Assembly: GCA_951406725.2 (NCBI GenBank) | Contig: OX597821.1 | Span: 32,674,001 to 32,738,000 of the forward strand | DNA: 64,000 bases | Source: Octopus vulgaris | Taxonomy: Eukaryota | Direction of reading: 5' to 3' | Notes under the pieces: model-generated | Seen by the model: only the letters and a program-made list of their open reading frames with translations | What the model was told of the DNA's origin: nothing | Database searches by the model: none | Program-made: the position numbers and the translations under genes | Part shown: piece after piece, positions 13,780 to 62,029 of the stretch | Numbering within the stretch: position 1 is the first letter of the stretch | Layout: each line of letters begins with the position of its first letter

Positions 13780-16051
<2,272 letters not shown>

Positions 16052-39875: not shown

Positions 39876-40611
39876 TACCCTTCAAGTATTAAACAATATT
39901 ATTTAGGAGCTGCAAATATCTCTAATTATTTCGAAGGGGGCGACACTAGAATGTGTCGAATTTTCTACTTTTGTCCTTGTGGATATCCCTGGCGTAATTG
40001 AACTAAAATTGATTTTAGTTACAATTGAAGCCAGATAGCGAACCCAGCTCCCTGAACAACTATAATAATTAGTGACAACAGTTAGAGCTGATAACTATCT
40101 AGTAATGTATTTAAAAGAATGTAATTCTCTGAAATCACCAGAGAAATACAACTTGTTATCGCGAAGTAAATTGCCTCCTTAATTTGCGATAGCTTAAAGA
40201 TGTCAGTAATTAATTTTTCACTAAGAAAACGAAAAATATAAGAGACAAAATTATTAAGAAATTTCCCGTAAAATGTCATGTATACCCAAATGCTTCAATT
40301 ATCCCTCTTCAGGCAAATAAATAAATGAATATTACAAATTAGCAAACAAAAATATAAATAAGATGCTAATAGCAAGGTTGAGCAGTTTTCTACTGTTGTG
40401 AAAAGGACGATAAATTGTTCTTTTTTCTCTTATGTAAACAACGGAAAACTCCAGGCTGACAAACAGCTAAAAGATTTTGTTGCCAAATGCTTCGCGTAGC
40501 TTGGAGACAATAGTATTTTAATAAAATTATTAGTTGGCTTGTTTCACTCACTTTCGTTTGATCTAGAGATAGAAAAGAAAACGAAATTGTTCCGCTATAA
40601 TAATGATGATT

Positions 40612-48185: not shown

Positions 48186-48550
48186 ATATATATGTGTGTG
48201 TGTGTGTGTGTGCGTGTGTGTGTATTTATATATATGTATATATATATATTCATATGTACAAACAACAATGGAGAATGGTGAGTAGAAGCAGTAAAAGCGA
48301 CAGCGATACACACAGCGGTTTGTTAAAAAATATTTATTAGCGATAGAGGCAGGATTAATATTGGTTTCAAATGTTGGCATAAGGCCAACAATTCTAGAGA
48401 AGGGTTCAAGTCGATTACATCGGCGCCAACGATCAACTGGTACTTATTCTATCGACCCCCGAAAGGGATGAAAGGCAAAATCGACCTCGGCGGAAATTGA
48501 ACTCAGAATGTAAGGACGGACGAAATGCCGCGCCCGGCCTTTTAACAACG
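47764..48550. repeat. Recent tandem duplication (period about 510 bp) of unique flank plus a SINE family A copy (-)
   Basis: GAATGGTGAGTAGAAGCAGT...GGCATAAGGCCAACAATTCTAGAGAAGGG...SINE occurs at 47764-48050 and 48273-48550. Confidence 0.9.
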
Positions 48551-49274
48551 CAGAATTAAAATCGTGAGGTAATATTTATCTCCAAATAAACGTGGATTTT
48601 CTGTTAAAATTGGCACTGTTATCATATATGTCGCTAGCGGAGATGATTCGCTGCTATCTCTAGTAGACGAGCGTCCGTCATTGACAAGACCAAGAGCCGC
48701 GTAAATCGAGTGAGCTGGTGGTCTGGGCGTTAGAGATGACAGGGATTTATCTCCCCGCTATCGATATAAACAAGAATGCATTTTGTACCAAAAGCGAATG
48801 GAAGGGTTTCTCTCACGATAACCACCGCAATATATTTTGTTATAATGAAACAGAAGTTTTATTGAGCACAACTTTAAACAAGCTAAGGGCATATTGTTTT
48901 TTTTGTTTTGTTTTGTTTTTGCCTTATGTAATGTAAAAGACTTCGTGTTGTAAGTTGATGAATATTTGACTGTATGTAAAGAGGAAGAAATGATCAGAGG
49001 TGGAATATACATATAAAGATATATACAGAATTGTGATGAAGAGAACCGAAGTCGCTTGAAGCCATAAAATAAACAATGTGAAGGAGATACTGTCATCATT
49101 TGACATCACGACATTCAGTATACGGCTATTATAAACATACGTAATCTCTCGCTCCCTCCCTCTCCCTCTCTCTCTCTCTATCTATCTATCTATCTCTTTC
49201 TCTCTTTATATATATATATATATATCTTTCTCTCTCTCTCTCTCTCTCTAACTCACTCTCTCTTTCTGTCTCTC

Positions 49275-49955
49275 AAGGCCGCCAGAATTACGTCCAAGAA
49301 TATCAGGCCCGGCAGTGACTGCAGTAACAACAATTACATCAGACCCGTAGCTAACGAAAGAAACATCAGCCGTTGTAGCGCATCCAATGCACAGACTTGA
49401 AAATATGTCGGTTCAACCACGCTCCCATACCTCTTGCCAGTTACTTATGGCGCTTGAAAGAGGAAGGAACCCCATACATAATTAAATGGGATCTTTTTGA
49501 AAAACCGGAGACGTATAAAAGGGAGCAAACGATGTAAGCTTTGCTTAGTAGAGAGGGCAAGAAGCCTAAAACTATCTCGTTCGACACGGGGACTTTTTTT
49601 AAACTCTAGGAAAGAAGTATTTAGTTAATGCCCTCACTTACAATCTTGCAATCCCCCATTCTTTGAACAGGCACACTGCAGCTCCTTCGAATATCACCAC
49701 GGCCGGAACCGAAGTAAGGGTAATATATCCGTCCCGGCTGCAGCGCCCTACGCACGGATAAATATTCTTTGTTTACAAAACTGACTGAATGCTACGTATT
49801 TCTTCCTTCGGCAATTTGAGCCTGACGAGTCACTTTATAGGTGCGAAACCAAAGGCCACTCTATGAACGGCCATAACATATAATTTCTTAAGTATATTAC
49901 TGGACTACTACTTTGCAAGTTACTTGTTTTTCGGATGTATGAACTATTGACGTTA
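49275..49955 (+). mobile_element. Penelope-like element 3' remnant; GIY-YIG C-terminus with CxxC (Naiad-like) followed by a hammerhead
   Basis: LASYLWRLKEEGTPYIIKWDLFEKPETYK/GSKRCKLCLVERARSL...LNSRKEVFS*CPH at about 49433-49637; one frameshift and one stop. Confidence 0.75.
49818..49861 (+). ncRNA. Decayed type I hammerhead in the PLE 3' region
   Basis: GAGc-CUGACGA-GUCAC[uuuauag]GUG-C-GAAAC-C[aaa]G-GcC-aCUC. The triplet is GCC instead of GUC. Confidence 0.6.
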
Positions 49956-49987
49956 TACACACACACACATACACAAATATGTATATG

Positions 49988-50066
<79 letters not shown>

Positions 50067-51161
50067 GTTATGAATGCATATATATATTATATGTGTTTGC
50101 ATGTATGTATATATATATGTATATATATATATGTCTATGTATAAGTATATATATACATACATATATATATATATATTACGTCAATAGTTTATACATCCGA
50201 ATTTAAAAGAGAGAGAGGGAGAGAGAGAGAGAAAGAGAGAAAGAGAGAGACAGAGAGAGATGAACGAGCAGATAAGGACAGTCTGGCAGAGAATTGAATG
50301 GGTGAAAATTAAAAGCTGTAAATAAGTGTAATATTATTGAACTATCGTGAATCAGGAGTGACTGAGGCTGTAGTAGGAACAATCAGAGAAATTAGGAAGA
50401 AGTAAAGGGCATTTGTGAGAGGTGACACGGAGGAGAGAAAGAAAAAGAAGCAGAGGGGGAAACGATTGAAATGAGGACAGAAAAGAGAAAGGACAAGAGA
50501 ATATTGGGGGAGAGGTTGTATCTTTGTGAGTGCGCATGTGTATAGAAGAGATTAAGGAATTAACGTATGAACACGTGAGTAAAATAGATAGTGAGAGAGA
50601 ATGGCATAAAGGGAAGAAGAAAATAATGAAGAATAAATAATCAGAAAGTGAGAATCTCACAAAGTGATGGAAGAAATTTTTAAAAAATGGAAGACGAAAC
50701 ACCATCATGAGGGAAACTGATAAAAGAGACAACGAAAGTTTGACAGAGAATGACTGAGTCATAAGGAGCTAGAAACAATTATATATAAATATATGTGTGT
50801 ATGTATGTGTGTGAATGTGAATGTGGTGTGCGTGTGTATGTGTGTGTGAGCGCGAGTGTTTGTGTACGTGAATGTTATAGAGAAAATGAGATAGCGAGGG
50901 AGTGAATTAGAAATTGAGGGAGAAATACAAAGAAGAGCGTAAGATGTAGATGTATGAGTGAGGAAAAAAGTGAAGGTGAGGTTGATAAAGCAGAAAGAAG
51001 ATAAGGAGGGTGGCGCAATGTGTCTCATGTACGAGGGGAGGAGTGAATGGATGAGCAAATTCAGAAGAAAATCAGTAAAGAACGAAAGTGACAAAAAATA
51101 TATGGATGGAAAAATGTCGACGGCAGAGAGAGAGAGAAAGAAAGAAAGAAAGAAAGAAAAA

Positions 51162-51217
<56 letters not shown>

Positions 51218-51428
51218 GAGAAAGAAAGAAAGAAAGGTATAGGGAGGTATAATAAAAAACTTACAAAGATATAGACAGAGAATAGATGAGTTAAAGAGAA
51301 AAAGAGAAGGTGAGGCAAAAATATGGCATGCAAATTAAAGAGACAGGGAGACAGAGAGAGACAGAGATAGAGACAGACAGACAGACAAATAGAATGGATT
51401 GAAAGCTGTGAAATCAGAGTGAGCACGA

Positions 51429-51515
51429 AACACTGACAAGGACAAACAGTCAGACAGACAGACACATAAACAAGTGTTTGTGTGTGTATGCACGCAACAT
51501 ACATATATATATATG

Positions 51516-51570
<55 letters not shown>

Positions 51571-51735
51571 ATATATATATATGTATGTTGCGTGCATACA
51601 CACTCAAACACTTGTTTATGTGTCTGTCTGTCTGACTGTTTGTCCTTGTCAGTGTTATTATATGTATATATACATTTATATATATATACATATGTGTGTA
51701 TGTGTGTATATATATATATGTGTGTGTGTGTGCAT

Positions 51736-51772
<37 letters not shown>

Positions 51773-51854
51773 GGTATGCACACACACACACATATATATA
51801 TATACACACATACACACATATGTATATATATATAAATGTATATATACATATAAT
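51429..51854. repeat. Double palindrome A-(TA)n-A'-B'-(TA)n-B
   Basis: 51429-51516 is the reverse complement of about 51569-51656, and 51657-51738 is the reverse complement of about 51775-51854. Confidence 0.9.
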
Positions 51855-51932
51855 ACAAACTGAGAATTCACAGAAAAAGCACAAGACGAAGACGGATGTG
51901 TATAAATATATAGATATAAATATAATGTATAT

Positions 51933-51963
<31 letters not shown>

Positions 51964-51992
51964 AATATAATCTATATAATCATATATCATTC

Positions 51993-52024
<32 letters not shown>

Positions 52025-52551
52025 GTACATAGATTTTTAAGAGAGAGAGAGATGTGGAATTGGCAGATGAAAGAGAGATACGATTAGCGCAACCATTTTC
52101 CATTGTTCCATACATTTTGTGTTAATGAAATCAAGTAACGGGTGTTAAAGGAAGTCACATACACACATATCATACACACACATAGACACACACACACACA
52201 TACGTATGTATATATATATATATATATGTCAGTGTGCGTGTGTATATATATATATATATATATTCATATATATATATATATATTCATATGTACAAACAGC
52301 GAGAGAGAGAGAGAGAGAGAGAGATGCGAAAGTCAGGAGAGAGTGATAATGAGATTGAGAGAGAAATGGAGAACGTGGTAATATGCCAATGAAACTCAGC
52401 AGCGAAGAGGCTACTGACAATAGACGTAACAATTATCACGAAATACTAAAAGTTTGCTGTTTCTCTTACTAAATTATGTTACAAAACGAACCGATATAAA
52501 ATTGCTAGGTAAACTAATTAACGCAAACATCTAATTGTCTTTTCCCCACAG

Positions 52552-52598
52552 GTGATGCACCCGCGTATTGCAATAACGGAGTTTGTAAAGTGAATTAG
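52552..52598 (+). CDS. Candidate terminal exon xDAPAYCNNGVCKVN*
   Basis: Branch-like CTAAT, then tgtcttttccccacag|GT GAT GCA...AAT TAG, with AATAAA at 52666-52671. No homology recognised. Confidence 0.3.
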
Positions 52599-53057
52599 TC
52601 GTTCTAAATTGAACTTACAATATTTTTGGCGTGAGCAGTGTTCTAAATGATGTATGTACGTACAAAATAAAGTACGTTGTTTCTCTATACTGAGATATAA
52701 CAAGCAAAAACATGTATAGATACATGCATATATGAACGTATACATAATAGATGCAGACACAAATGCTGATATACAAATGCACACAGATATAGGTAGAACC
52801 ATACACACAGGTAAATTATCTTTGTGAATCTATCCGAATATTCATGCGTGTGTACGTACAAATATAATGTATATGTGTGTATACAAACACACAGACACTC
52901 ACACAAATACACACACAGACACTCGCATACACTTATATATGAAAATATGCACCTATCTACTTGTAGAAACAGAAGTATTTCTTTCAAAACTGAAATGCGA
53001 GTACACACACACATCACCTACACACACACACACATTCACACACACACACGTACACAA

Positions 53058-53231
<174 letters not shown>

Positions 53232-53864
53232 TGATGGATCGGTTGATAGGAAAGAGGTTTGCATGAACGTGTTTACGAAAGTATGTACCGTCAAATAAAT
53301 CTACATAAGTTTTCTATTCGAAATATTGTACGCTGTAATTTTCTGTCAATTTGCCTCCTGCGGTCAAATCCCGTGCTGGCTAACATGAGTTTTTTATCCT
53401 TCCGGGACAGTGGTTTAATACAGCAAAGATCAACTAATGGGATTTCTTTCACTCCCTCACTCACTCTCTCTCTCTCTCTCCCTCTCTTTCTCCCCCCTCT
53501 CTCTCTATCTCAGTCTCTCTTTCGTTCAGTCTTTCTCGTTCGCTCGCTCGCTCGCTCTCTCAAACACACACTCACTCTCTCTTTCCTCCCCTGTTCTTGT
53601 CTGTGTCTACATCTCCTCGTCTCTTAGAATTGGGTCCACTGCATCAGTCATGAAAGAGTGATGAATTACCGTTTAGCAGCCTCCTCTCGCCTGGTATTCT
53701 GCAAAAACTGTCCAAAGAAACCAAATAAAATGGCGGTTGTAGGTACAAAGAAAGATGTCGTTACGACACAGGACGGTTAACAAAATTCACATAAGTCTCT
53801 GTGGTTGGTGTATATATATATGTATATATATATATCAAAAGAAAAACAGGATGCCAAGGGTTTT

Positions 53865-53951
53865 GTGGTACATATGTTTCTGGCTTTATTGAACAATTTA
53901 TATCAATGCATAATTGATATAACATGTAGGTCAACAGCCTTCTTCAGCCGC
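53865..53951 (-). ncRNA. Type I hammerhead ribozyme with long stem II
   Basis: Minus strand: GcGG-CUGAAGA-a-GGCU..UUGA..UUAUAUCAA[uuaugca]UUGAUAUAA..UCAA..AGCC-a-GAAAC-AUAU-GUA-CCaC. Stem III is the palindrome ACAUAUGU. Confidence 0.8.
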
Positions 53952-54220
53952 GTACAATTACCACACCAAAGACGTATATTACGTTATATCAGGTTTGAGA
54001 AAAAGTTTGGGAGAAAAACGAGTTTTATTGGGAAGGTAAATCCTCATAGTCGTATACGACATAGCGAGACACCAAAACAAAACGTCCATACCGTTTTTCA
54101 CTCGATAAAGAATGAGGGGTTTGGATGTTGAGAGAAAGAGGTGGAAGGGGATGAATCTTTAAAGAAGTTGGGATCATAAAGAGGAAAAAGTATATGTATA
54201 AATTTAAACATGATTTTATT

Positions 54221-54468
<248 letters not shown>

Positions 54469-54488
54469 AGGACATTTATAAGGAAATA

Positions 54489-54536
54489 GTCTTACAGCTG
54501 TATCTGGGATAATATGGATACCTCTTCATCAGAGAG
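54489..54536 (-). ncRNA. Decayed family H1 hammerhead
   Basis: CUGAUGA is intact but GAUAC replaces GAAAC; AGCU-GUA-AGAC is retained. Homologous to 4593-4640. Confidence 0.6.
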
Positions 54537-54727
54537 AGTGTGAGAAGGTTAAAGTGAGGAAATATTTGAGGAATTTAAACTTTTCACATCCATTTAAACT
54601 ACACACATATAATTATATATATATAATTCAGTTGAATTAGGTACTTAAGTTGAAACACCAAATCAGTCTGGTATTACATATATGTGTGTGTATGTACATA
54701 TACATATATATTGTTATGGTAGAAGTT

Positions 54728-54811
<84 letters not shown>

Positions 54812-54840
54812 ACAGCAGCCGTAGCAGCAGCAGCAGCACC

Positions 54841-54897
<57 letters not shown>

Positions 54898-54943
54898 TGT
54901 GGTGGTGGTGGTGGTGGTGGTGGTGGTGGTGGTGGTGGTGGTG

Positions 54944-55009
<66 letters not shown>
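54728..55009. repeat. (GTA)n/(GCA)n/(GTG)n trinucleotide array
   Basis: Direct inspection. Related (GTG)n/(GAT)n arrays at 55967-56220. Confidence 0.95.
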
Positions 55010-55314
55010 AGTTTGTATTTCACTTATACAGGATGGAAAAATACTGCTGTTTGAGAAAGAATCGGTGGTAGTCTAGTAATTGATGTAGAACTGATTAGAA
55101 ACGTTGTCCAGTAGCGTTAACCAACTATTTTTATGGACGATTTTGACGATACTCACCTGATCTGCAATTGAAATTATTTCCGGAGAAATTTTATCAAATA
55201 TTCATACAGGCGGGTAATAGTTAAGATTTTGCTGAACTTATACACTAGTTAAATCAATGTATGATATTTCTCTGCCAAACATAGTTTTCATTTTCCTGAA
55301 CGATTTTAGATATC

Positions 55315-55521
55315 AGTTTCAAATTTTTACACAAGGCCAGCAAGTTCGGGTTAAGTCGATTACACCGACTTCAGTGCTCAACTGATACATATTTCATCGA
55401 CACCCTAAGGATGGAAAGCAAGGATCGGTCTCGGTGGCATTTGAACTCTGAACGTAGGAACGGACGAAATGCTTCTAGGCATTTTTTCCGGCGTGCTAAC
55501 AATTCTGCCAGCTCGCCGCCT
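55315..55521 (-). mobile_element. SINE family A
   Basis: Reverse-complement head GGCGGCGAGCTGGCAGAATTGTTAGCACGCCGG and B-box GAGTTCAAAT. Confidence 0.85.
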
Positions 55522-56982
55522 TGAACAATTTTAATATCGAGATGAAATTTCGACGGCGTATAACTAATGAGAAATTTGGTAATTCTTCCATACTTTAGTC
55601 CTGTAGAGAAAAATGTCTTTAACATGGAAAGTACGACGATGGTTGACAACGTAGAGGAGAGTACTCAAGGACAGTACGGGAACTAGAATATACTATATTA
55701 TTAAGGCCAGTCGGACGAAGGGTGTTGAGGTCAATAGTAACAATAATAGAACGTTGATTGGTTGTGAGCAGTGTAGTTGGGGCAGCAGTAGTAAGGTGAT
55801 CCGTAGTAAGAAGGAGAAGAAACTTAATTTATCACTCGTGACTTTCAGCCAGTAAATCTCGCAGATGTGTTTGAGTGTGTATGTGTATGTGTGTGTGTGT
55901 GTGTGCGCGCGCACGTGCGTGTGTGTGTGTGTGTGAAATGATCATAATGAGGTGATGCTAATACAAGTGGTGGTGGTGTGGTGGTAGTGGTGGTGGTGGT
56001 GGTGGTGGTGGTGGTGGTGGTGGTGGTGGTGGTGGTGGTGGTGGTGGTGGGTGAGTTGCTGTGGCTGTGTTGATTGTCGCGGTGTTCATGATGATGATGA
56101 TCATGATCATGATCATGATCATGATGATGTTGATGATCATGATCATGATCATGATGATGATGTTGATGATGATCATGATGATGGTGATGATGATGATGAC
56201 GACGACGATGACGAAGACGAATGTAAGGATGACGTTCATGGTCATGCTGATCAGAATGATGGCGGTCATAAATAATACCAGAATCACTTATACATACAGA
56301 AGCACTGTCAAATAGATACACACACACATACATACACACACACGCACACGCACATACACACACACACGTATGCACAAACCCCCTAGAGACACATCCACAT
56401 ACCTTATATACTTACATATTTACACAATATTGTCGCAAAGATTTCAAGAATCAGTAACGCCTTCTGTCGTAGAAAGACTATAAACATGCCGACCTCTGGT
56501 TCGTTATAAAATGTTTATGGCGAAATACAAATGAGAAAAAAAGACGATAGTAGAAGAAGCGTCCAGTGCAGTAATGATGTACGCGAAGCTCGGAAAATTG
56601 GTCTATGTGCTACACACACAAACATACGCACACACACAAACATATGTGCACACAGGCACGCGCACATATATATACAAATATACACAGTTACGTATATATC
56701 TTCAATCAAACATATAAAAGTATTTTTCCACATAGACATGCGCACCATACATACACACGTGCCAATCACTCAACTTACGGATGAGTTTTAATCTAATCAA
56801 TAGATTCAAGCTACTGCATAAGTATACACCACTTCAATCTTAGACACCACACACATACACACACACACATACACACACACACAAACACAGACACACACAC
56901 ACATACACACACACGCATACACGAACTGACTTAAGTTTGATATCATACATACACATGGTATTCTAACATACTCATACACACA

Positions 56983-57031
<49 letters not shown>

Positions 57032-57073
57032 ACCTTGACAGAGAATTACGTCCGGAATCAGCCCAATCCAGCG

Positions 57074-57128
57074 TTCCCTACTGATGAGGCAAAGGAATTA
57101 GCCGAAACTGACCGATCAGTATAGGAAA
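57074..57128 (+). ncRNA. Canonical type I hammerhead ribozyme with a full stem III
   Basis: uuc-CCUA-CUGAUGA-GGC[aaaggaauua]GCC-GAA-ACUGA[ccga]UCAGU-A-UAGG-aaa. All core nucleotides are present; predicted cleavage is after GUA (57121). Confidence 0.92.
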
Positions 57129-57347
57129 TACTCAACCGGTGTTATCGGGCGATTACAGTTCTTGTCAGTACATATGCATACAATTATGTGTTTTAACTAC
57201 AGCATTAGAGGCTTTTAGCACTTTTTTCTAGCAATGTAGGTGGTCTAACACCATAATCATATTTAGTGACAATTATTATTTCCCTTTTTGGTAACACAAT
57301 GCATATGGCTGTCTTTATTTATTATATATATATATATATATATAACA

Positions 57348-57952
57348 TACAAAATGGGACAAGAACGCAAAACATCCAGACAACTAGGTGATATAAAAAG
57401 GGACAACAAAACATGCAGATAGACGACACAAAGAAAACAAGACGAGTCATTCGAAGTTTTCTATCTTCAGTCAAGAACTAGATTATCCTCGCAATTTCGG
57501 CTGATTATCTCTCTTTGATTCCTTTTCCTCTAGATTTTTTCTCTCTCTTCTTCCCTACTCTCACGTGACCTGATGGTCAACTAGCCTTTTCGCCGTTGAC
57601 CACTGCCGTGACAACACCGTTTTCTTCGTCTGCCGCAAAGGCATTTATTTCAAAATACGCCAGCTAAGATAAGTTAAATTGTCTAAAGTCGTAAGACACC
57701 CGCTGTTTTTGTCCTGTTATTACCATTCTTGTTTTAATTTTATTTCGTAAAAATTCGATCCTTTTTCCAAGAAATCTAATGCTCGCAGCTTAGTTTTTCC
57801 TTGGGGCTGGCCGGATCGGAGCGATATCAGGATTAACCAGCCGAAATTTGCTAGGATGATCCAGTTCCTGACTGAAGATTAGAGGCTTCGAATGACCTGT
57901 CCATTTTTTGTGTCGTCTCTTTGTGTATTTTGCGTTCTTGTCCCATTTTGTA
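57348..57952. mobile_element. TA-embedded element with diverged terminal inverted repeats of about 150 bp
   Basis: TACAAAATGGGACAAGAACGCAAAA and its exact reverse complement at 57928-57952. The inner GTCATTCGAAG...CTTCAGTCA...AATTTCGGCTG is mirrored at 57838-57897. Confidence 0.8.
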
Positions 57953-57965
57953 TTTTTACATATAA

Positions 57966-58014
<49 letters not shown>

Positions 58015-58237
58015 TCGGGACTCGAGAGATCGGTAACGGTGCCAACAACATTGTGCAGGATGCAGAATGTCTTCATCATAAGGGCGGTTGATGCCATTCT
58101 GAAGGTGTACACAAACGTGCAGAAGCTAAAAGCAACCTTCAAAATATCACTACACTTGCAGCCCGGCACCTGGAGAGGAAACTCTACGCTTGACGACATG
58201 TATGTAGATAGATAAATAGATAGATAGATAGATAGAT

Positions 58238-58398
<161 letters not shown>

Positions 58399-58409
58399 TA
58401 ACTATGTAT

Positions 58410-58608
58410 GGGGAGAGTTTACGAAAAAAACAAAAGACGAAGACAGGTGGTGTACAAAACAATCAGATGTATTAGTATAACGCTCAGGAATAAAAAAAAG
58501 TCTTTTACGTTTCGAGCCTACGCTCTTCTACAGAAAGGGACACAGAAAAAAACAAGGAGAGAAACAAGGAGAGAAAATAATGTGTGTGGTGGCTAACGAC
58601 CTATCATG
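58410..58608 (-). mobile_element. Family H3 cassette with a CUGUAGA hammerhead-like motif (58502-58537)
   Basis: Minus strand: CUUU-CUGUAGA-a-GAGC[guag]GCUC-GAAAC-GUA-AAAG. Confidence 0.75.
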
Positions 58609-59133
58609 GCGACTATATGAATGTACATACATATAACTATGTATGTACATTCATTTAAATACATATAAATTTATCACCTAAGTTCATGCAGAAATGTGTG
58701 CCTTTGCTTATTCAAATATTCAGACTCTCTCTCATGCTTTAATTTACCGGCTACCACATTCAGGTGCGCACGCACGCCCACATATACATACGCACAAATT
58801 TGTATATATGTCTACGTGTGTGTTGTGCGCGTATCTGTGGTAGTGAATGGACGTCGCCAGTAACTCACCCAGCCACGCGTCCAATCATATATGTATTCAC
58901 TACAACTATTCCGGCAATCGTGTAATTAACTACCAAACAGAACCACCTGCTGTTACTTGTCAAATGAACAAATATCATCGACAGCCCAGCCACTCGAGTT
59001 GCTAGTCTTTTACTTTGTCTCTCTATCTACCAATCTGTCTGACTGCCTGTCTGTCTGTCTGGTTGTCTGGTTGACTCTCTGTATGTATGCAGGAATACAT
59101 ATATATATATATGTAAAAATATATATATATATG

Positions 59134-59164
<31 letters not shown>

Positions 59165-59198
59165 GTATGTGTATATATATATATGTATATATATATAT

Positions 59199-59240
<42 letters not shown>

Positions 59241-59425
59241 TCACACATTTATATTACATACAGAGTGTGTGCACACACAAACACAAAGACGCGCGCGAGC
59301 GCGTATAGTCTCAGAATATTCGCATGTAGACAGATAGATATATCTATACGTAGATATATACACACTCACATATATATATATATATGTCCGTATGTGTATA
59401 TATATATATATATGTGTGTGTATGC

Positions 59426-59473
<48 letters not shown>

Positions 59474-60277
59474 GCACGTGTGTGTGTGTATATATGTACG
59501 TATATATATATATATATATACATACATAAATACATACACACACACATATATATATACACAAAAGGAACACACATGCTGACACGCTCACACAGACACACAC
59601 CCATACACACACAAACACAAACACACAATCACAGACACACGTCTGTCATATTTTGTTGACAGTTTATGTTGTGCAGTAACATTAATAGAAAAAAAATTAT
59701 CAAAAAAATATAGGACTGCTCTCCTCATACCTCTGACATTAAAAACAATGAAAAACTCTTCAAATAAGATAGAAATGAAATGTGACATTTTCTTACACTA
59801 TTTATTGTGGGTTAGAGAAAGCGGAAAACTAATCAAAACATAGACACTATGACGTCATTAACGATTTAATTTTATTTTATTCATGAAGGTCCGTGACTTA
59901 TATCCCAAATTAGATGATCTGTTGCCCTATTTGAAATCAATTTCTTTGATATAGTTTTCTTTAGAGAGCGTCATAATACTCCAATTTGGCAAGTATCCAC
60001 CGAATATTTCTCGTCTCTAATCTTCGTTTCCCCATTCTACAGAAATAATGATTTCTTTGCTCTGGACATTTGGCTAACGTTTGTAATGGGAAGTGTTTTG
60101 AGTATAATCAAGTGAAATTACTCTGACTCTAGTATTCTAACTGTGTTTAGTGTATGTTCTCTTGTTGCATGGAAGACAACTATCCTACAGTAGATACTGT
60201 AATCAAGAGAGATTATTCATGTGTGTATATTTCCACATAAACTTTTCGCTTTCTCTCACTTCCTTTCTCTAACTTGG

Positions 60278-60460
60278 CATGATAGATCGTTAGCCACTAC
60301 ATACATTTTTTTCTCTCCTTTTTTTTCTGTGTCCCTTTCTGTAGAAGAGCGTAGGCTCGAAACGTTAAACAATTTTTTCTATTACTGAGCGTTATACTAA
60401 TACATCTGTTTGTTTTGTACACCACCTGTCTTCGTCTTTTTTTTTTCGTAAACTCTCCCT
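60278..60460 (+). mobile_element. Family H3 cassette with a CUGUAGA hammerhead-like motif (60335-60370)
   Basis: CUUU-CUGUAGA-a-GAGC[guag]GCUC-GAAAC-GUU-AAAc; reverse complement of 58410-58608. Confidence 0.75.
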
Positions 60461-60464
60461 ATAC

Positions 60465-60540
<76 letters not shown>

Positions 60541-60605
60541 GATAAAATGGGACAACATAGCCAAGGCTATGTGGAATTTTCAGGACATTTATAACGAGAA
60601 AGTTA

Positions 60606-60653
60606 GTCTTACAGCTATTTCTGGGATATTAGGGATATCCCTTCAGCAGAGAC
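60606..60653 (-). ncRNA. Decayed family H1 hammerhead
   Basis: Minus strand: GUCU-CUGCUGA-a-GGGAUAU[cccua]AUAUCCC-a-GAAAU-AGCU-GUA-AGAC. A6>C in the core; stems intact. Confidence 0.65.
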
Positions 60654-60810
60654 GGTGCGAGATGGCAAACTGTGGGGAAATAGTAGAGTTTGATATAATA
60701 AGAAGTATAAAGGGAAATAAGAGAATAAAATTAAAAATAAAAATATATGTAGGGTGTTATCGTTGCTGTTTCATTATCCAAGGAATGTGGTGTGTAGGAG
60801 CAGAAATGCT

Positions 60811-61226
60811 TCTTATCTCTTTATTGCCCACAAGGAGCTAAACATAGAGGGGCTAAACAAGGACAGACAAAGGGATTCAGTCGATTATATCGACCTCAGT
60901 GCGTAACTGGTACTTAATTTATTGACCCCGGAAGGATGAAAAGTAAAGTCGACTTCGGCGGAATTTGAACTCAAAACGTAACGGCAGACGAAATACCCAT
61001 TTTTTTATTACCCACAAGGGGCTAAACATAGAGGGGACAAACAAGGACAGGCATAGGTATTAAGTCGATTACATCGACCCCAGTGCGGAACTGGTACTTA
61101 ATTTATTGACCCCGAAAGGATGAAAAGTAAAGCCGACCTCGGCAGAATTTGAACTCAGAACGTAACGGCAGACGAAATGCCACTAAGCATTTCGCCCGGC
61201 ATCCTAACGTTTCTGCCAGGTCGCCG
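60811..61226 (-). mobile_element. Two tandem SINE family A copies
   Basis: Same arrangement as 26503-26901. Confidence 0.9.
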
Positions 61227-61988
61227 CAGCATTGCTTCTTATATAGCTGTGTACACAGCCATATATAATTTAAAGAATATAACGTATGTACGAGTGAGTG
61301 GGCAATCGAAAGAAAACATGGGCTCTTAAACATCGATGTCTACGTAGGCTGCAAGCCGATGCCCCCCACCCCCCACTTATACATCCTTTTTAACCCCGTA
61401 CATGCGCTCCATAAATGTGAACGTGTGCACACATACACACACACACATAAATACATCCATGCACTCACACTTCTCGCTTTACAAACCCCACTCACCATCA
61501 AACCTCAGACCAACGTCAATTCTCACCTCACTGTAACGCTGTTGAGACTAAACTTGTGTATATCTCACGTGCTCGCATACATAAATACCAAACGTATGCA
61601 TGCGTGTGTGTGTGTGTGTATGCGTGTGTGTGTGTCTGTGTGGTGCGCGTGCTCGTTTATGTAAAATTTTCGTCGAAATAGGTAATTTAATAAGTATATA
61701 ATCTAAGTGCTCGATTTGATTTACTACTAAAAGTTCGATTTGAACTGCAACTGTCGAAGTTGCCTATCAAAGGTGGTTAGAAGTGGTAAACAGCCGAGCA
61801 GGTATGTATATGTGTATATATATATAGTTAATCCGAACATGAAAGCACAAAAAAAACACAACAACGCGAGGACGTGGAACAAATATAGTATTATTGGACG
61901 CTCAGGAAAGAAGGAAAGAAATATATATATATATATCCTTATATCCTTAAAAATGTTTTAGCCCGAATGCTGCGGCCATGCTGGGACA

Positions 61989-62029
<41 letters not shown>

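Follow-up and report, generated by a model that had tools for sequence, protein, structure and literature searches.

A complete type I hammerhead motif between two microsatellites

We analysed a 64-kb window (64,000 nucleotides) of the Octopus vulgaris genome (contig OX597821.1, positions 32,674,001 to 32,738,000 of the forward strand), to which all coordinates below refer unless a unit position is given. It contains a short element flanked by (CA)n and (TA)n arrays, as an earlier, sequence-only reading of this DNA had described:

56844..57033: (CA)n array, outside the element and marking where its 5′ end is cut off
57036..57320, plus strand: retrozyme-like copy with a single arm, 5′-truncated, covering unit positions ~57-347
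57306..57320, plus strand: fixed 3′ end of the family, unit position ~347, adjoining the TA array
57323..57344: (TA)11 array, the likely insertion target, judging from sister copies

The element carries a complete type I hammerhead spanning 57075-57127, whose core and three stems can be read from the sequence:

57067-57071 with 57131-57135 (span 57067-57135), plus strand: distal stem I, outside a 3x3 internal loop
57075-57080, plus strand: 5′ strand of stem I, partner 57122-57127, 5 of 6 pairs formed
57077-57080/57122-57125, plus strand: inner pairs of stem I
57081-57087, plus strand: core CUGAUGA
57088-57103, plus strand: stem II with its loop, containing an A57091-A57100 mismatch
57088-57090/57101-57103, plus strand: stem II pairs
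57104-57107, plus strand: GAAA core segment
57107-57111/57116-57120, plus strand: stem III, 5 bp, its letters matching the family majority
57112-57115, plus strand: CCGA loop of stem III
57119-57121, plus strand: GUA triplet with A17 at 57121, predicted cleavage 3′ of A57121

The complete core, the 5-bp stem III with its CCGA loop, the pairs of stem II and inner stem I and the GUA site ending at 57121 all lie where the sequence-only reading had placed them. The CUGANGA, GAAA and UH core elements of a type I hammerhead are present, together with three helices of which stem I is open-ended. The motif was also rightly singled out as the best ribozyme candidate of the window: a scan of both strands yielded this one complete type I motif, and the half-core pattern alone at 5 other places. 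Four half-core words lacking the full fold, at 14286, 30596, 35743 and 63655 on the plus strand, are probably decayed PLE termini.

Outside the core, the window copy departs from its family at several pairs. Proximal stem I has lost one pair (C57076-A57126, where the family has C-G), the distal stem two of its five, and stem II a single one. As for a loop 1-loop 2 tertiary contact, the GNRA-type loop 2 (GGAA, 57094-57097) is retained, with two A-U pairs closing it, and the stem I internal loop is changed. Neither the window hammerhead nor its best-preserved sisters gave a match at the Rfam gathering score, so that we identify the motif by its core letters and its helices. The cassette alone scored 20.4 bits against Hammerhead_3 (E 0.052) and the best sister copy 22.9 bits, for a cut-off of 48.5. 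An Rfam E-value scan of 48500-62000 gave only microsatellite noise among the 150 of 178 matches listed.

Dimer-type cleavage through a palindromic loop III was considered and set aside as unneeded for the 5-bp stem III of the window copy. In both arms of another locus (L116, 1586-1683 and 1242-1333), stem III is shorter and perfectly palindromic, as in dimeric cleavage.

The cassette is a truncated copy of an old, dispersed ~350-bp repeat

A DNA search of the 2.8-Gb genome with the cassette returned 1,432 candidates; among the best 40, which were scored, the highest non-self identity was 85%. A second query recovered mostly the same top copies, at 75-82% identity. Exact matches genome-wide numbered 294 for a 27-mer of the 3′ part, 23 for an 18-mer of the ribozyme and 3 for a 49-mer. 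The 27-mer is present in 7/30 and the 18-mer in 8/30 of the best copies; scaling by these fractions gives ~1,300 3′ fragments and ~90 ribozyme-bearing copies of the subfamily, both probably lower bounds. Since the copies are only 81% alike at the median (maximum 87.5%; 435 pairs from 30 copies), the family must be old. Neither two DNA queries nor three exact patterns revealed a young subfamily, and the family looks extinct in this assembly, as judged from the best 40 scored candidates.

The repeat unit is ~350 bp long, non-coding and arranged head to tail. Three loci that contain the same landmark twice have spacings of 353, 354 and 359 bp, and a profile built from 15 full copies has 349 positions. 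GC content is 34-41% and the longest ATG ORF 23 aa. Folded in silico as circles, 8 natural units gave z scores of -0.8 to -4.8 relative to shuffles, and their majority sequence -7.6. The element is retrozyme-sized (349-359 bp), as the sequence-only reading had it, and is multi-copy and non-coding, with a canonical type I hammerhead. That reading had taken the cassette of about 290 bp for the unit and 57042 for its start; the cassette is instead a 5′-truncated copy, and many sisters extend ~65 bp upstream of its start before entering the 3′ end of a preceding unit (30 loci). The window copy is ~90.5% identical to the 30-copy majority (median of copies 89.7%). It contains one ribozyme, and the locus could for that reason not release a unit-length RNA or circle alone. 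Elsewhere in the window, 40104-40214 on the minus strand matches the unit profile weakly (E 0.36-0.66) and is possibly a much older fragment without a ribozyme.

We found no long tandem array of the unit: an exact tandem pattern had 0 matches genome-wide, and the sole head-to-tail copy with two ribozymes that we saw, L077, has both cores broken.

To describe the family ribozyme we aligned 54 copies, a sample biased to query-like copies. Its stem I comprises 6 bp and, beyond a 3x3 internal loop, a distal stem of 5 bp; stems II and III have 5 bp each. The core is intact in 23/54 copies and every stem is perfect in 3/54. Compensatory changes were observed in stem II (U-A to A-U, 5 copies) and in stem I (C-G to U-A, 3 copies), which suggests selection on the source elements. 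The covariation is modest (score 0.147 vs. 0.130 shuffled, 2 of 500), pairs with a two-sided change numbering 7 vs. 8.1 in shuffles. Conservation at core positions was 0.92, vs. 0.88 at other non-CpG positions.

Insertions of the family have the structure of PLE insertions

Outward 3′ ends fell at unit positions 340-347 in 57/93 cases (78 unique loci), a count that takes in a few false arms from the internal hairpin of the unit. We then chose by hand 18 loci whose arms truly lie on opposite strands, of which L103, a compound case, was set aside. One arm ended at 332-349 in 16 of the remaining 17, counting L062 across a later insertion; this end was paired with an end at 285-307 in 11/17, and in 0/17 were both arms long. 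The two landmarks, 347 and 307, are 40 nt apart and each ends in TATA. By eye, family ends usually adjoin a microsatellite, most often (TA)n, and no target-site duplication was readable in these microsatellite flanks.

Sister insertions thus combine a fixed 3′ end with 5′ truncation, partial tandems, an inverted arm and a tail of ~40 bp that just one of the arms has. PLE insertions are described as 5′-truncated, with partial tandems, a 5′ copy in inverted orientation and, at one end, a tail of 30-40 bp (PMC8557442). Judged from the copies themselves, the unit insertions match this one-sided tail pattern, and the fixed 3′ ends, inverted arms and one-sided tails of the sisters support a PLE-type insertion structure. 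The predicted cleavage site corresponds to unit position 151. Insertions begin far from it and cross both the site and the unit junction, for which reason the template would have been a circle or an uncut multimer.

Two further repeats touch on these insertions. L062 and L103 both contain a ~225-bp insertion of the same repeat at unit position 307, with a short duplication. This repeat, also present at 60820-61178 of the window, we take to be SINE-like; the shared position may mean that insertions favour this site or that the source copy was chimeric. Immediately beyond the cassette, 57345-57965 is a different high-copy repeat (6,970 candidates, the 3′ part 94-96% identical in many copies) that shares the TA array with the cassette. 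It has ~120-bp inverted arms with a degenerate hammerhead-like word in each, and is probably another PLE-type two-armed insertion.

Search for an autonomous partner

No autonomous PLE carrying the unit was found in 49 endonuclease loci (20 Hydra-like, 29 Neptune-like, the latter by our reading of the linker motif). Translated searches with two endonucleases over 44 + 30 family loci gave clear matches at L004 and L009 only. We rejected these endonuclease remnants as partners, both being separate neighbours beyond a microsatellite. Pfam gave a GIY-YIG match on L137 only and missed two short endonuclease pieces.

The searches brought up an abundant PLE group (L054:675-1139 and L133-L162; 15,834 candidates) with a C-terminal GIY-YIG and a CxxxxC-xx-C linker. 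The half-core pattern occurs within 700 bp downstream in 1/30 loci of this group.

Origin of the cassette

The copies themselves show how long the unit is, that units join head to tail, that 3′ ends are fixed, arms inverted and ORFs absent, and that stems change in compensation between subfamilies. We hold a retrozyme reading with good confidence: the cassette would be a 5′-truncated, ~10%-diverged copy of an old ~350-bp retrozyme, likely written by a PLE RT into a TA microsatellite and likely inert. Multimeric transcripts of the source elements would be cut at the hammerhead into monomers, which would probably then be ligated into circles. A PLE endonuclease would nick (TA)n and the RT prime internally at AT-rich points, 347 on one strand and ~307 on the other, before copying backwards over the cleavage site and unit junction of a circle or uncut multimer. 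At the window locus, reverse transcription would have halted after ~290 nt, leaving one ribozyme. Counting against the retrozyme reading are the absence of a long tandem array (exact tandem 0, both L077 cores broken) and of an autonomous PLE with the unit in the 49 loci examined, the modest covariation and, for decay of the window copy, its relatively low folding penalty and a stem II mismatch that it may have inherited.

Alternatively, an autonomous PLE, now extinct, could have had the unit as its pseudo-LTR (3′ UTR), which later became detached; the copies would then be 5′-truncated insertions of this PLE, and an independent retrozyme RNA would never have existed. Every insertion footprint is of PLE type, as such an origin would have it, and in Xenopus 21 PLE matches, at PLE termini, are reported for 24/57 retrozyme families (10.64898/2026.07.22.740005). 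However, copies that run past the unit start enter the 3′ end of a previous unit and not coding sequence, the translated searches of 44 + 30 loci met only the separate elements at L004 and L009, and the ribozyme, with its long stems and internal loop, is unlike the minimal PLE type. We consider a pseudo-LTR origin unlikely, while giving it more weight than the other alternatives treated below.

Predicted folding and competence of the window copy

The hammerhead had been called intact and probably monomer-competent. This stands for the core and stem III; stems I and II contain mismatches, and a competing fold that blocks the core is predicted. The A-A mismatch of stem II is found in 5/54 copies (the window copy and 4 others) and may be inherited rather than a product of decay. 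With ViennaRNA, the hammerhead fold of the window copy lies 4.3-6.2 kcal/mol above the minimum (four constructs), compared to 1.6 kcal/mol in the sisters L012 and L051 and 7.9 kcal/mol in L095, and the predicted probability of the active fold is <0.001. The folding penalty is the fifth-lowest of the 23 core-intact copies, making this copy better preserved than most. It should be noted that the folding models ignore Mg2+ and tertiary contacts, so that cleavage may still occur. On these predictions the window copy is likely to be inert now; it may cleave in vitro at high Mg2+, more slowly than the best sisters, a prospect that we regard as close to a toss-up.

The intact core positions, stem III and GNRA-type loop 2 could also be explained if this copy were a working ribozyme, retained by the host to cut a transcript at 57121. 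Loop 2 agrees with the purine-rich RNnA motif (PMC2632901) and GUA is a natural hammerhead cleavage site (PMC1636495); we found no account of this particular GNRA contact in the literature. Such retention seems improbable to us, given that the copy has diverged like its sisters (90.5% vs. a median of 89.7%), that copies this old often keep their core by chance (23/54), and that stem I has 3 broken pairs and stem II has 1, with an active-fold probability as low as that given above.

The competing fold consists of the following helix in the minimum-energy structure:

57079-57085 with 57115-57121, plus strand: predicted 7-bp competing helix

It ties the core CUGA to the 3′ strand of stem III and the cleavage site. 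We could parse 26 of 62 copies examined for their register: the blocked register had a probability of at least 0.5 in 16/26, and the active register in 0/26 (maximum 0.42). The competing helix is kept in 87.7% of cells, and its covariation is no higher than in shuffles. Stem III itself is constant, whereas subfamilies differ in its loop and in stems I and II.

These predictions raise a tentative idea, which we consider improbable, that the family ribozyme has a built-in off switch by register slip. The core letters CUGA recur in the 5′ strand of stem III, so that the 3′ strand of that stem, with the cleavage site, could slip onto the core, in a register that would lengthen stem I. While the RNA is being made, the local stem III hairpin would allow cleavage; once ligated, the circle would settle into the blocked register. 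Against the switch, there is no covariation for the alternative helix, whose match could be due to chance, and folding software takes no account of tertiary contacts, by which hammerheads are stabilised. We found nothing on such core-blocking folds in the literature. Metastable inactive folds during transcription are described for viroid hammerheads (PMC1636495). The circles of animal retrozymes are mostly predicted to have a free ribozyme, some mussel ones excepted, with the blocking mechanism given as unknown (PMC7229834). A switch of this kind, if true, would offer an explanation of how animal retrozyme circles avoid re-cutting, an open point of that study.

The 49284 element and the proposed Naiad link

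The sequence-only reading had linked the cassette to a second element of the window:

49284..49935, plus strand: 3′ remnant of a Hydra-like PLE, unrelated to the cassette, with a broken C-terminal endonuclease followed by the 3′ UTR

The remnant runs in the order endonuclease, stop, 3′ UTR, hammerhead and microsatellite. CxxC and CxH flank the conserved E and N of its endonuclease, and the CxCX5C linker and the RWK and DKT regions are absent. Its hammerhead, at 49822, is damaged, part of stem II and the cleavage triplet being gone compared to its sisters. Hydra elements are described as having a C-terminal endonuclease, CxxC and CxH around E and N, a hammerhead and a (TA)n target, and Naiad elements an N-terminal endonuclease and no canonical hammerheads (PMC8557442). 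By this description of motifs and layout, the 49284 element fits Hydra and not, as had been proposed, Naiad.

The link rested on a 12-mer at 57042-57053, which does recur, at 49284-49295. Two matches were seen vs. 0.04 expected from Markov shuffles, one of them, at 50740, unrelated. The word is carried by 1/30 cassette-family copies, namely the window copy, and by 2/20 remnant-family loci. Base 57049, which the 12-mer requires, deviates from the family majority and is common to 1 of the 53 other rows; the two family majorities agree at ~10 of the 12 letters. The word had been taken to mark the start of the 49284 element. Among the sister copies listed, it lies inside an A/C-rich linker that runs on upstream, and we rejected it as a sign of kinship, being internal in both families and found in so few copies of either. 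Profiles of the unit and of the 49284 family, compared in both directions, gave no match within the units (best E 2.9-3.2), and the reciprocal best matches (E 0.04-0.06) lie beyond the bounds of the unit.

Descent from a Naiad-like PLE, as a non-autonomous element with a terminus in common with the 49284 element, would account for the exact 12-mer, its rarity under shuffles, the similar majorities and the (TA)n flank, (TA)n being a Naiad target (PMC8557442), but the few, internal occurrences of the word, the unmatched profiles and a remnant that is Hydra-like in its C-terminal endonuclease and hammerhead, Hydra too targeting (TA)n, largely refute this derivation and leave it very improbable.

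Comparison with known systems

Seen at the level of its DNA copies, the family has the testable features of an animal non-LTR retrozyme, an already known kind of element: unit size and GC content, multiple head-to-tail copies and a predicted self-paired circle. The closest system is that of the metazoan non-LTR retrozymes (Cervera and de la Pena 2020, PMC7229834), especially the 350-390-bp units of Mytilus galloprovincialis. Like these, the octopus family has a type I hammerhead in a GC-poor, non-coding head-to-tail unit within the 150-450-bp range, a predicted highly self-paired circle, and coexists with hammerhead-bearing PLEs. Unlike them, it consists of old copies (median 81%) that are dispersed and mostly span 0.3-1.5 units instead of forming long arrays, and its RNA circles are predicted ones. 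A local block of the ribozyme is predicted here, which among animals PMC7229834 gives only for some mussel circles.

With the vertebrate retrozymes (Li, Clavereau and Pollet 2026, 10.64898/2026.07.22.740005) the family has in common scattered solo 'monomer' copies and PLE-linked mobilisation. In contrast to them, no homology to PLE termini was found in 49 loci. The two consecutive complete hammerheads by which these authors call a locus 'active' are absent from the window locus, which has one ribozyme; the exact tandem pattern had 0 matches and the L077 cores are broken. Of the dimers predicted in that study, 1/9 cleaved. With the PLEs, in particular Naiad and Hydra (Craig et al. 2021, PMC8557442), the family shares truncation, partial tandems, an inverted 5′ arm, a one-sided tail and (TA)n; it differs from them in having no ORF in its unit, and from Naiads, described there as lacking canonical hammerheads, in its ribozyme.

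We found no report of an octopus hammerhead ribozyme or a cephalopod retrozyme in the literature; the supplements of these papers may list cephalopod elements. The single locus matters little: there are about a thousand copies, and this one is worn. The family is a further cephalopod example of animal retrozymes, and its two fixed 3′ ends support mobilisation by PLEs, as proposed in PMC7229834 and argued by Li et al. 2026.
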